Below are positions 681 to 62,287 of a stretch of 64,000 nt of DNA, one piece after another; the first letter of the stretch is position 1; the number at the start of each line of letters is the position of its first letter. Under the pieces are notes generated by a model, which made no database searches, had not been told where the DNA came from, and was given only the letters and a program-made list of their open reading frames with translations. The position numbers and the translations under genes were made by a program. The DNA is from a virus, in IMG/VR virus record IMGVR_UViG_3300042731_009106, positions 1-64,000 of that record, one strand, 5' to 3'.

Positions 681-744
681 AAAATTTTTCACATATATTT
701 TTATTTTGTGTATTTCTATTTAAACTATAATTTTTTTAAACAAC

Positions 745-2376
745 ATGAGTAATACTAACGTTAATCGATCTGCAAATTTAGCTCCGAGAAATCGAGTTAT
801 TTATCAAAGTGAAGCCTTGTTTATTTCGCCCGATACAACAGGCAACCATCTATATTACATGCCACCATCTGCTGTGACTGGAAGTACAAACCTAGTTGAC
901 TGTACAGTTTCTGGTTCAGATGAAGAGGGCAATGCCATGACATTCGATGCTTGCATGGGTACAGGTATAGATTCTTCTGGAGTAGGAAGAGACTTTAAAT
1001 TTTACACAGTTGCATGTACTGGTCACGATCAAACAGCTAAAAGTACAACAGGTATTCACCCAATTTTACATAAAGCTGGATTTGCCACGGTTGATGCTGA
1101 TAGTCCGGGGTTGGCATATATGGGATTTTCTACAGACAGAAAATCTGGTAGTTTTGGAACAACTCTTGAACAGTTAAAGAGAGTACAGAGTGCAAATTAT
1201 AGTTTCACAATTAATAGGCAAGATGTTAATCAATTTGGGCATCTCGCAAGAATCGACTCTGTTGTGCTTGAGTCTCCAACAGTTAGTATGGACTTTTCTT
1301 ATTACTTAACAGACGGAGAAAACGAAAGATTAATGGGAATGGTAACAGATGGATCCTATCAACATCTTTCTGGTATGATGACTCGTTCTCAAAATGAATT
1401 TGGTAATAGCTATTTTATACTAACCGTACCAGAAGGGCGTGACGCTCTTAAGGGCGATCAGCAAGTTGTTGAAGCTAATAAAACAGTTATTGGTGTTGGA
1501 AATTCTTATGTGACAGATTATTCTGTAGAAGCCAGTGTTGGATCTTTCCCAACCGCTTCTGTCACAGTAGAAGCAATGAACATCAAATCTGATGTAGGTA
1601 CTGAATACAAAACGATTCCCGCAATCGATCCACAAGATGGTTCATTGTTGTGTAATAAATGTTTTTACTTACCACCAGTAGAAAGCGGTCAAGGACAAAG
1701 TGTTCTGAAGCCCGGAGATATTACAATTGATCTTCAAGATGCTGGATTAATTTCAAGGCAGCTTTCTGGAAACACAGTTGGTTATAACCTTCCTTACGAC
1801 AAGGGTAGTGCCCACATTCAAAGCTTTACTTTGTCTACTCCAATGGGTAGGTCGGCTCTACAAAGACTTGGTAGCACATATGCATACTCCAAAGAAATAG
1901 ACTTCCCTGTTACATGTACATTAACAGTTAATGCTCTTGTAGCAGACTTAAAATCAGGAAACTTGGTTGACTTGATTTGTGGTGGAACATACGATCTTAA
2001 GGTGAGAATGCAAAATCCTTCATGTGTAGTATGTGAGCCTAATAAAGCTGAAGATGCTATCGTTATTGATTTCAGAAAAGCCGTACTTGACTCAGAAAGC
2101 TTCTCTTCTGCTATTGGAGACAACAAAACTGTTGACTTGACATTCTCTACTCAAGTAGGTGGTCCAGAAGAATCGGCAGTAGGTGTATTCTTTAGCGGCA
2201 TCGAAAATGCTAAAGGAGCAGACAATAAACACAAGTCTTTTCCTGAAATCGCAGACACTGGTGACGGAGCCTTAAAATTCTTCAGGTATGGAGCAGAAGG
2301 TACTACTGGATACTACAATGGTAGTCATCTGAGTGGATGGAATAGCGAAGTTAGACTTCACACGAAGAAACACTAG
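745..2376 (+). CDS. Putative major tail tube protein (543 aa)
   Basis: Beta-strand pattern typical of tube proteins (LKRVQSANYSFTINRQDVNQFG...TVSMDFSY; IQSFTLSTPMGRSALQRLGS...TCTLTVNA); structural-gene context; followed by a strong terminator. Confidence 0.6.
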   Translation: MSNTNVNRSANLAPRNRVIYQSEALFISPDTTGNHLYYMPPSAVTGSTNLVDCTVSGSDEEGNAMTFDACMGTGIDSSGVGRDFKFYTVACTGHDQTAKSTTGIHPILHKAGFATVDADSPGLAYMGFSTDRKSGSFGTTLEQLKRVQSANYSFTINRQDVNQFGHLARIDSVVLESPTVSMDFSYYLTDGENERLMGMVTDGSYQHLSGMMTRSQNEFGNSYFILTVPEGRDALKGDQQVVEANKTVIGVGNSYVTDYSVEASVGSFPTASVTVEAMNIKSDVGTEYKTIPAIDPQDGSLLCNKCFYLPPVESGQGQSVLKPGDITIDLQDAGLISRQLSGNTVGYNLPYDKGSAHIQSFTLSTPMGRSALQRLGSTYAYSKEIDFPVTCTLTVNALVADLKSGNLVDLICGGTYDLKVRMQNPSCVVCEPNKAEDAIVIDFRKAVLDSESFSSAIGDNKTVDLTFSTQVGGPEESAVGVFFSGIENAKGADNKHKSFPEIADTGDGALKFFRYGAEGTTGYYNGSHLSGWNSEVRLHTKKH

Positions 2377-2403
2377 AAAAAAGCTTCTTTAAAAGTTAAC
2401 ATT

Positions 2404-2440
2404 TTACACCACAATCTTCGGGTTGTGGTGTAATTGTTTT
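2404..2440 (+). terminator. Intrinsic terminator with cUUCGg tetraloop
   Basis: TTACACCACAATC-TTCG-GGTTGTGGTGTAA: 13-bp stem with one G.U pair, followed by TTGTTTT, just after the tube gene. Confidence 0.8.
2428..2433 (+). promoter_or_regulatory. GTGTAW motif (candidate phage promoter) inside the terminator 3' arm
   Basis: GTGTAA; 15 nt between GTGTA and ATG 2448. Confidence 0.45.
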
Positions 2441-2447
2441 ATAAGGT

Positions 2448-61020: not shown

Positions 61021-62034
61021 ATGGATACAAAAACAGGAGAACTACTTACCCAAAATATCGCAGGCGTGAACCGCATTTTACCTCACAAGCACAAGTATGC
61101 TTGGGATTTATTTCTTAAAAGTTGCGCAAACAATTGGATGCCTACTGAAATCAGTATGCAATCAGACATTAAACAATGGAAAAACAATGAAATTACAGAA
61201 GATGAAAAATTACTTGTTAAACGTTGTCTTGGATTTTTTGCTGGATCTGAGTCTTTGGTTGGTAATAATCTTTTGCTTAGTGCCTTTAGATTTATTACGG
61301 ATGCTGAGTGTCGCCAATATATCCTTCGCCAAGCGTTTGAAGAAAGTCTTCACAACCTTACGGTAGTTTATATTTGTGATAGCTTGGATTTGGAAATCGA
61401 AGAAGTATTTGCTGCTTATGAAAACATACCCAGCATTAAAGCTAAAGACGATTTCTTAATGAGTATTACTAACGATATTAGTAGGCCAGACTTTACTACC
61501 GACAACAAAGAAGGAAAGCAAGAGCTACTTAGAAACTTTTTAACCTATTGGATTGTGTGCGAAGGCACTTTTTTCTTTAGCGGTTTTGCAATGCTACTAG
61601 CCCTTGGTAGACAAAATAAGCTTCAAGGTATTTCAGATCAAATTAAGTATACCCTAAGGGACGAAAGTTCTCACATTGCCTTTGGTACATATTTAATCAA
61701 CACTCTTATTGAGCAAAATCCAGAAATATGGACTAAAGAAATTCAAGATGAGTTTGTGTCTCATATACAAAAAGCTGTAGAGCTTGAAATCGCTTACGCT
61801 CATGACGTTTTGCCTACAGGTATTTTGGGATTAAATGCTGACATGTTCGTTGAGTACATGCACTACATTGGAAACCGTAGGCTTGAAGCAATTGGTTTAG
61901 ATTTTAGATTTCCTAGTGACAAAAATCCATTTCCTTGGTTAGGCGAAGTTGTTGATGTTCAAGCTATGGGTAACTTTTTTGAGCGTAGAGTTAGAGAATA
62001 TCAACAAAGTGGCTCACTTGAAGATGATTTCTGA
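61021..62034 (+). CDS. nrdB: Ribonucleotide reductase beta subunit, class Ic (R2c)-type
   Basis: W39, E77, E108, H111, V115, E181, Y210, E215, H218, Y327; NFFERRVREY tail. Confidence 0.95.
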   Translation: MDTKTGELLTQNIAGVNRILPHKHKYAWDLFLKSCANNWMPTEISMQSDIKQWKNNEITEDEKLLVKRCLGFFAGSESLVGNNLLLSAFRFITDAECRQYILRQAFEESLHNLTVVYICDSLDLEIEEVFAAYENIPSIKAKDDFLMSITNDISRPDFTTDNKEGKQELLRNFLTYWIVCEGTFFFSGFAMLLALGRQNKLQGISDQIKYTLRDESSHIAFGTYLINTLIEQNPEIWTKEIQDEFVSHIQKAVELEIAYAHDVLPTGILGLNADMFVEYMHYIGNRRLEAIGLDFRFPSDKNPFPWLGEVVDVQAMGNFFERRVREYQQSGSLEDDF

Positions 62035-62053
62035 TATGTAGCCCCTTATATTG

Positions 62054-62059
62054 GTGTAT
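62054..62059 (+). promoter_or_regulatory. GTGTAW motif
   Basis: GTGTAT; 10 nt between GTGTA and ATG 62069. Confidence 0.55.
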
Positions 62060-62068
62060 ATATTATGT

Positions 62069-62287
62069 ATGCCACATGACGGATCACATATATCAAAATC
62101 AATTCCTCAGCAGAATTGCAGTAAAAAACAAAAAGACTTACAAGGTATCCCATATAACCTCATTGGCGATACTAGTCTTAATGACCTTTTAGTTAAAGAG
62201 CTTCAGGATATAGATTTCCCAAAATCCTCCAATATTTCATCAACTCAATTCTCTAAACCCAAACACGGTATAGGAAAAAAAGTATAG
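62069..62287 (+). CDS. Small hypothetical protein (72 aa); start revised to 62069
   Basis: In frame with track ORF 62051; preceded by GTGTAW. Confidence 0.5.
   Translation: MPHDGSHISKSIPQQNCSKKQKDLQGIPYNLIGDTSLNDLLVKELQDIDFPKSSNISSTQFSKPKHGIGKKV

Follow-up and report, generated by a model that had tools for sequence, protein, structure and literature searches.

GTGTAW boxes shortly before start codons: candidate promoters for a phage-encoded sigma factor in an uncultured marine phage and its relatives

The phage contig, its genes and its relatives

The DNA analyzed here, referred to as the window, is a stretch of 64,000 nucleotides (nt) from the IMG/VR virus record IMGVR_UViG_3300042731_009106 and corresponds to bases 22196-86195 of an 89,217-bp IMG/VR phage contig (G000). 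The contig has a G+C content of 33.6%, is about 97% coding with an intergenic share of 2.6%, and is estimated to be about 72% complete. Its recognizable genes encode ribonucleotide reductase, dUTPase, a single-stranded DNA-binding protein, glycosyltransferases, nucleotide-sugar epimerases and a sigma factor. The latter, P0001, consists of 203 amino acids (aa) and is encoded at 22785..23396 on the minus strand. The subject of this study is the hexamer GTGTAW (W is A or T), which is found a few nucleotides before the start codon of a number of window genes. An initial annotation had proposed this motif as the promoter of leaderless messages and the protein encoded at 22785..23396 as its cognate sigma factor. 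All 15 copies of the motif that it listed were recovered, both in position and in distance to the start codon.

Neither Rfam families nor tRNAs were found in the window. Cultured close relatives were found neither by DNA nor via the sigma protein. Relatives were located by means of the sigma protein and of a conserved 543-aa protein encoded at 745..2376, and a search via the protein encoded at 35498..37246 yielded none. Four relatives were read whole: G001 (146 kb, complete), G002 (92 kb), G006 (115 kb) and G007 (214 kb, complete), whose sigma proteins are 62%, 43%, 38% and 37% identical to P0001, respectively. Together with G000 they form the five genomes used in the tests described below. 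The distance d is counted from the final motif base to the first nucleotide of the start codon.

Placement of GTGTAW at start codons

As a word, GTGTAW is not enriched in the window (67 copies compared to 60.6 +/- 7.2 in shuffled sequences). Of its 80 copies in the contig, 19 are intergenic, compared to 2.6% of the DNA. At d=9-12 the motif precedes 12 of the 66 window genes. When the 40 nt upstream of each gene were shuffled 3000 times with dinucleotides preserved, 0.17 genes on average and at most 3 had the motif at these distances. The distance is 9 nt for the starts at 6313, 12328, 15246, 34149, 38013, 40525 and 60710, 10 nt for those at 31704, 41957(-) and 62069, and 12 nt for those at 37269 and 57530. 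More distant copies precede the starts at 2448 (d=15), 34584 (d=20) and 745 (d=32). An unbiased scan of all hexamers between -25 and -1 ranked GTGTAA first, with 10 occurrences observed and 0.33 expected. GTGTAA or AGTGTA is also the first or second upstream hexamer in G000 and in each of the four relatives, in which the distances likewise cluster at 9-13 nt. Among 57 non-redundant sites pooled from the five genomes, d is 8 nt in 2, 9 nt in 23, 10 nt in 15, 11 nt in 4, 12 nt in 8 and 13 nt in 5 cases. All of these sites are followed by ATG or GTG starts.

In the sequence logo of the 57 sites, information is restricted to the six motif bases, a preference for a preceding A and A/T-rich flanks, and the sites often read wAGTGTAAt. 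The flanks themselves are dissimilar, which indicates that the sites are not copies of one repeat. An origin by chance, by AT-rich composition or by copying of one intergenic cassette would be in line with the total count of GTGTAW, which does not exceed that of shuffles. It is already refuted, and we give it practically no weight, since 12 sites stand against 0.17 expected, the flanks differ and the pattern recurs in four divergent genomes. The claim of the initial annotation that the motif exceeds chance at starts is thereby confirmed.

A -35 box was not detected. Between -45 and -7 of the motif no informative column was found in the 57 sites, and enrichment of 4-mers and 5-mers in two upstream windows gave only A/T-rich words. 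The -7 T typical of sigma70 promoters is, as had been noticed before, not conserved (T at the equivalent column in 24 of 57 sites). A reading as a sigma70 or extended -10 promoter (TANNNT, TG at -15/-14) was rejected on this ground and because TG abuts TA without a spacer and is thus out of register. A reading as a -35-type upstream element, like that of phage 7-11, was rejected because nothing is conserved 16 nt downstream.

Seven orthologous sites retain the motif between G000 and G001 despite diverged intergenic sequence. They are located upstream of the contig genes 17720 and 21091 and of the window genes 2448, 6313, 38013, 40525 and 60710. The motif is found in 23% of co-directional gaps of at least 12 nt and in 2% of gaps below 12 nt (overlapping or abutting genes), and at short divergent junctions it is present on one side or on both. 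An enrichment at the heads of divergent operons, which had been expected, was dismissed as unspecific (14%, compared to the 23% at co-directional gaps of at least 12 nt). Since the motif is not concentrated at divergent heads, most copies would be internal promoters in gene arrays, or there is room for RNA processing.

Evidence for a signal read on DNA

For a depletion test, synonymous codons were shuffled within every gene of the five genomes. Of its 30 base permutations, none was as depleted as GTGTA in either orientation (observed/expected 0.59 in antisense and 0.75 in sense). On the coding strand, its complement TACAC ranks third in depletion among the 1024 pentamers, and the depletion of GTGTA within genes is evident in each of the five genomes separately. 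The initial annotation had allowed for the case that the motif is no more common at starts than within genes; instead, starts are enriched and genes are depleted. A signal that acts in mRNA only is not expected to be avoided on the untranscribed strand, and the avoidance on both strands therefore points to a promoter that is read on DNA. Other words among the most depleted within genes of the five genomes are AAGGA, GAGGA and AAAGGA as well as the palindromes AACGTT and AGTACT, which points to an avoidance of both internal ribosome-binding words and restriction sites in genes.

The near and the far sites differ in their Shine-Dalgarno content. A Shine-Dalgarno-like word, defined as AAGG, AGGA, GGAG or GAGG between motif and start codon, was present at none of the 62 sites at 8-13 nt and at 8 of the 11 sites at 14-30 nt (Fisher p=1e-8), with a background rate of 119/641. 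That no Shine-Dalgarno sequence follows the motif, as noted in the initial annotation, holds for all near sites of the five genomes. Orthologues of gene 2448 occur in two layouts, GTGTAT-ttatatat-ATG (d=9) in the relatives L034-L039 and GTGTAA-ttgttttaTAAGGT-ATG in G000, G001 and L031. The d=9 form has no Shine-Dalgarno sequence and the d=15 form has TAAGGT. Such a link between distance and Shine-Dalgarno sequence would be expected of a motif that determines where the RNA begins.

A further indication comes from the base in front of the start codon. T is found at -1 of the start in 18 of 23 sites with d=9, compared to 38% of the other genes (p=1.4e-4). Transcription start sites of bacterial RNA polymerase usually have a pyrimidine at -1 and a purine at +1. 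The T at -1 together with the purine of the start codon would thus put +1 of the modal class on the first base (A or G) of the start codon.

A translation signal on the RNA level has to be considered as well, i.e., an operator or a non-Shine-Dalgarno enhancer in the 5' untranslated region of transcripts that start further upstream. The spacing is fixed and similar to that of Shine-Dalgarno sequences, the majority of the sites are located between co-directional genes, and no Shine-Dalgarno sequence is present. However, the antisense orientation, which never occurs in mRNA, is the more depleted one within genes, and the far sites carry a separate Shine-Dalgarno-like word. The motif is also unlike a Shine-Dalgarno-type site in that it precedes only 2% of the overlapping or abutting genes, whereas ribosome-binding sites are routinely embedded in the upstream gene. 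GTGTAW does not pair with the anti-Shine-Dalgarno sequence CCUCC, and no Rfam match was obtained. We consider a translation signal improbable.

An RNA-processing site, at which a host or phage endoribonuclease cuts polycistronic RNAs near GTGTAW and releases leaderless messages, would fit the fixed spacing, the co-directional placement and the relation between distance and Shine-Dalgarno sequence. It is at odds with the antisense depletion, which points to reading on the DNA level, and with the site at 40511, which follows a terminator. A promoter would still be required for the lone opposite-strand genes 15246 and 60710, in whose gaps of 24 nt and 19 nt no element but the motif is conserved. 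In addition, initiation sites typically show the pyrimidine/purine signature that is seen at the start codon. The chance that processing accounts for the pattern appears slim.

The candidate sigma factor P0001

P0001 matches PHROG 351 (sigma factor) with E=1e-10. In Pfam it had no match at E<=0.01, with PF04542 (Sigma70_r2) reaching 17.5 bits compared to a cut-off of 24. The profile of its family matches FliA and SigA at E of about 1e-3, and the homologue P0119 carries PF04542. An AlphaFold2 model of P0001, built with 30 homologues, has a predicted local distance difference test score (pLDDT) of 84, and all of its significant Foldseek matches are sigma factors. Residues 3-106 superpose on region 2 of Escherichia coli sigmaE with -10 DNA (4lup), with a Z score of 11.1 and a root-mean-square deviation of 2.9 over 94 residues. 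The same sigma2 domain gave Z scores of 10 with SigK and SigW. Residues 125-203 match sigma4 of Fusobacterium SigH, SigD4, CnrH and sigmaE region 4 (Z 8.6-9.1). According to the model, P0001 is a two-domain sigma factor resembling those of the extracytoplasmic function (ECF) group. The assignment of 22785..23396 as a sigma factor gene is thus borne out by the fold.

The family of P0001 comprises 513 metagenomic homologues, including some from Tara Oceans, and orthologues are present in G001, G002 and G004-G007. Even in orthologues with an overall identity of 37%, no change is seen in the sigma2 helix KFSTYLGNE(I/T)(K/R)W(K/M)CLN or in the sigma4 helix SIQGCINIH. The invariance of the sigma2 recognition helix parallels that of the motif. 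P0001 is also the only sigma factor common to the motif-bearing genomes examined. A search for an Rpb2-type domain, i.e., a beta-like domain of a multisubunit polymerase, gave no match.

The sigma gene lies two genes into a leftward operon, which is headed by the host-type promoter TTGACT-17-TATAAT at 24212..24240 on the minus strand, with an upstream TG. Two more sigma70-type matches of 11/12 positions are located in the same divergent gap, at 24316-24343 (+) and 24382-24355 (-). In G006 and G007 the orthologous sigma gene lies directly behind TTGACA-16-TATAAT, and in G001 behind TTGACT-17-TAATAT. The presence of sigma70-consensus promoters before the sigma gene in four genomes suggests that the sigma factor is made early by the host holoenzyme and that the host uses ordinary sigma70-type promoters.

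Proposed mechanism and its assessment

From the sequence comparisons we consider it probable that GTGTAW is a promoter which is read by the phage-made sigma factor encoded at 22785..23396 and which gives rise to near-leaderless messages. A class of phage middle/late promoters would have GTGTAW as its sole specific element. Host polymerase with a sigma70-type factor would transcribe the operon behind TTGACT-17-TATAAT, an arrangement that is observed. P0001 would then load onto the host core polymerase and recognize GTGTAW as an element of the -10 type, with no need of a -35 box. The analogy with sigmaE and with gp36 of phage phiEco32 would place the GTA of the motif at about -12 to -9. RNA would start 8-9 nt past the motif, which is on or next to the start codon at the modal distance of 9 nt and 1-5 nt before it at the other near sites. 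These messages, which have no Shine-Dalgarno sequence, would be translated as leaderless or near-leaderless mRNAs. Where the motif is located 15-24 nt upstream, a purine-rich AAGG or GGAATAAGG ribosome-binding word would fill the leader.

With GTA at -11 to -9, +1 would fall 8 nt past the final A/T, so that a leader of 1 nt would result at d=9; from the T/purine signature, +1 would fall at 9 nt, exactly on the start codon. In either case, the leader predicted for d=9 would measure 0-1 nt and that for d=12-13 up to 4-5 nt. The initial annotation had set the A of GTGTA at -11, which is about 1-2 nt off; by the analogy with sigmaE and gp36 it would be nearer -9 or -10, and the conclusion is unaffected. 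Leaderless mRNAs, as proposed in the initial annotation, are plausible for the d=9 sites, with their frequent T at -1 and no Shine-Dalgarno sequence, and leaders of 1-5 nt would result at d=10-13.

Several observations weigh against this reading. With a spread of d from 9 to 13 nt, the messages cannot all be strictly leaderless. In G001, 5 of about 12 orthologous sites are without the motif. The majority of the sites (49 of 71) are located between co-directional genes and not at obligatory operon heads, and only 14 of 98 divergent heads (14%) carry the motif. Avoidance of a restriction site could in principle produce a depletion in two orientations; it offers no explanation for the enrichment before genes. 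The other points concern the reader. Further sigma-like genes are present in G001 (5735-6268(-) and 26001-26690(-)) and G002 (30806-31393(-)), which are unrelated to each other and to P0001 and not common between genomes; a sigma cascade in the relatives is possible. The contig of the window is only about 72% complete. Finally, two-domain ECF-like sigma factors usually depend on a -35 box. No such box was detected here, although P0001 has an invariant sigma4 recognition helix.

The extra sigma-like genes, the incomplete contig and the lack of a -35 box fitting the sigma4 helix would be explained if the promoter were read by another factor, i.e., another phage sigma-like protein, an alternative sigma factor of the host, or host sigma70 re-targeted by a phage appropriator. 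On the other hand, the P0001 family alone is common to all motif-bearing genomes examined, and its sigma2 recognition helix is conserved without change, as is the motif. A sigma70 reader is further opposed by the unconserved -7 T and the TG out of register. Another reader is a serious alternative that we nevertheless judge unlikely. P0001 is thus retained as the candidate reader, as proposed in the initial annotation. In its favor is that no other sigma factor is common to the motif genomes; the relatives encode further sigma-like genes, and its role is one that we infer.

A broader interpretation is tentative and, in our opinion, rather doubtful. It would imply a very large uncultured marine phage clade with an undescribed sigma family, a -10-type box of 6 bp as the only promoter element and a temporal gene class that is obligately leaderless. 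Takeover of transcription would thereby be coupled to a Shine-Dalgarno-independent translation that favors phage over host messages.

If confirmed, the promoter would provide a rule by which middle/late transcription units could be marked and gene starts corrected in the genomes of hundreds of uncultured ocean phages. It would be a second case, unrelated to phiEco32, of a phage sigma factor that reads a single TGTA-type box, and a natural system of a two-domain sigma factor working without a -35 element. It would also mean that a phage is able to express a whole class of genes from leaderless messages, a point of relevance to the way in which phages bias the ribosomes of the host.

Individual sites in the window

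The sites are described here from the modal distance outward and are located on the plus strand unless indicated otherwise. GTGTAA at 6299..6304 (d=9) precedes ATG 6313 of a 697-aa gene, whose G001 orthologue has GTGTAT at d=9. GTGTAA at 12314..12319 (d=9, ATG 12328) lies in a 15-nt gap between co-directional genes and is absent in the G001 orthologue. GTGTAA at 15232..15237 (d=9, GTG 15246) belongs to a lone plus-strand gene between two minus-strand genes, with a divergent gap of 24 nt. GTGTAA at 34135..34140 (d=9, ATG 34149) is located in a gap of 15 nt. GTGTAT at 37999..38004 (d=9, ATG 38013) precedes a nucleotide-sugar epimerase gene; here, GTG is followed by TATAAT, and the G001 orthologue has the motif at d=10.

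GTGTAT at 40511..40516 (d=9, GTG 40525) is found at the end of the T-run of a terminator. The intrinsic-terminator-like hairpin at 40488..40505 (+) has 7 pairs, 5 of them G-C, followed by TTTTTT, and abuts the motif. The L006 orthologue of gene 40525 has the motif at d=9 in the same terminator arrangement, while the distance is 12 nt in G001. GTGTAA at 60696..60701 (d=9, ATG 60710) lies in a gap of 19 nt before a lone plus-strand gene. This open reading frame (ORF) of 73 aa (60710..60931, +) has a tblastn match at 64253-64474 in G001, which has its own GTGTAT at d=12. Because the ORF is conserved, the facing minus-strand gene is expected to start at 60690 and not at 60783. The probable start of this minus ORF (59707-60783) is the internal ATG 60690 (MRKLQSLAKK...), and its first 31 codons overlap the ORF at 60710..60931.

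At d=10, GTGTAA at 31689..31694 precedes ATG 31704 of the large subunit of ribonucleotide reductase; L006 retains it at d=10 and G001 is without it. GTGTAA at 41967..41972 on the minus strand (d=10, ATG 41957(-)) lies in a divergent junction of 53 nt, the plus side of which has TATAAT instead. GTGTAT at 62054..62059 (d=10) precedes an in-frame ATG at 62069, which opens a 72-aa ORF after the gene of the ribonucleotide reductase small subunit. The starts at 60710 and 62069 are both non-default ORF starts. At d=12, GTGTAT at 37252..37257 precedes ATG 37269, with GTGTAA at d=10 in a related G002 gene, and GTGTAA at 57513..57518 precedes ATG 57530 of a sulfotransferase-like gene. Immediately upstream, the ORFs 56079..56735 and 56647..57507 (TTG start) overlap by 89 nt, and the second one probably starts further downstream.

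GTGTAA at 2428..2433 (d=15, ATG 2448) is a leadered variant, followed by TAAGGT. It is part of a conserved hairpin (2404..2433) with a T-rich tail, in which the motif forms the 3' arm and its complement the 5' arm. This hairpin has 14 pairs, 3 of them with compensatory double changes, across 9 relatives, and is likely the terminator of gene 745..2376 overlapping the next promoter. Two contacts between motif and terminator had been reported in the initial annotation, and both are found: the hairpin at 40488-40505 with its T-run abuts the motif, and the one at 2404-2433 contains it. The latter is palindromic and also sets a GTGTAA on the minus strand, aimed back into gene 745..2376. Its pair with the variable last motif base covaries from A-T to T-A across the relatives.

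A purine-rich GGAATAAGG(T) or TAAGGT is found 0-3 nt before ATG in a few genes, including the giant ORFs of G000, G001 and G007, which is unusually tight for a Shine-Dalgarno sequence. These words are located at 2434-2447 in the window and at the contig genes 4603-15462(-), 16498-17346(-) and 17375-17662(-). TAAGGT is also among the hexamers enriched upstream of starts in G000 and G002. The contig gene 4603-15462(-), outside the window, is an ORF of 3619 aa with GTGTAC at 21 nt and GGAATAAGG upstream, and the same arrangement is found at ORFs of 2984 aa in G001 and 4460 aa in G007.

The status of GTGTAA at 34559..34564 (d=20, ATG 34584), which is without a Shine-Dalgarno-like word, is uncertain. 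GTGTAT at 708..713 (d=32, ATG 745) has a TATAAT between motif and start and is retained at 33-39 nt in G001, L030 and L031. Another GTGTAT (31617-31622(-)) lies 58 nt upstream of gene 30816..31559(-), which has its own TATAAT 6 nt before GTG. TATAAT or TGTATAAT is found 5-10 nt before the start of the motif-less genes 42011, 30816(-), 52031 and 45858, and host-type promoters may likewise give very short leaders at motif-less genes. TATAAT-like boxes near starts show only a mild concentration at 6-11 nt, a result that does not decide on a general leaderless use. A generic promoter scan was uninformative in this AT-rich DNA, with counts at or below those of shuffles.

Comparison with known systems

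Late promoters of phage T4 (TATAAATA) are read by gp55 and have one element in the -10 region but no -35 box. The gp55 protein is confined to a sigma2-like part and depends on gp33 and on the sliding clamp, and the late messages have Shine-Dalgarno leaders. The GTGTAW sites resemble this system in the single -10-region element, the phage sigma-like reader and the repetition in co-directional arrays. They differ in sequence, and the accessory needs of gp55 and the leaders with Shine-Dalgarno sequences set T4 apart.

ECF (group 4) sigma factors are similar to P0001 in their fold, and the GTA of GTGTA resembles the ECF cores GTC and CGTA. E. coli sigmaE reads G-11 T-10 C-9 (PMC6648896; PDB 4lup, 5or5). 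In contrast to the sites described here, ECF promoters depend on a strong -35 element (e.g., GGAACTT). An anti-sigma gene was not identified here.

The late promoters of Salmonella phage 7-11, read by gp47, have the form GTAAtg-(16)-aCTA (PMC8948821). They share the GTAA word, and their reader is a sigma factor of the phiEco32 group of phages. They are bipartite with GTAAtg upstream, whereas nothing is conserved 16 nt downstream of GTGTAW, a position that falls into coding sequence.

Leaderless mRNAs are known from the mycobacterial leaderless transcriptome (PMC4633059), and phage transcripts are often leaderless (PMC5312081). The common features are a promoter element, here a putative one, about 10 nt from ATG or GTG and the lack of a Shine-Dalgarno sequence. 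The difference is that a whole promoter class of a phage-specific sigma factor would be placed in this way and not the TANNNT of the host. In the literature we found no report of a phage-sigma promoter class that is set systematically against start codons.

The phage phiEco32 offers the most parallels. Its gp36 recognizes AATGTA as the only element, with the center at -11.5; the bases A-14 A-13 T-12 G-11 T-10 A-9 are read, and the fork lies between -12 and -11 (PMC12276001). The consensus of the phiEco32 middle/late promoters is tAATGTAtA (PMC4331800). Both systems have a divergent two-domain phage sigma factor that acts on the host core polymerase (proposed for P0001) and whose gene is first transcribed by the sigma70 holoenzyme, as well as one short -10-region element with a TGTA core, AATGTA and AGTGTA differing by a single base. 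T-Y-x4-I-x-W is found in the sigma2 recognition helix of both proteins, with Y83 and W90 in each in a simple register. However, no homology between gp36 and P0001 could be detected: BLAST aligned only 62 C-terminal residues with E=0.009, and the profile matches in the PDB do not include gp36. The second base is G here and A in phiEco32, the gp36 structure contacts -37 and -34 while no upstream signal was found here, and phiEco32 promoters have not been reported to abut start codons. We regard phiEco32 as the closest precedent for the GTGTAW promoters, in the sense of a working analogy and not of membership in the same group.

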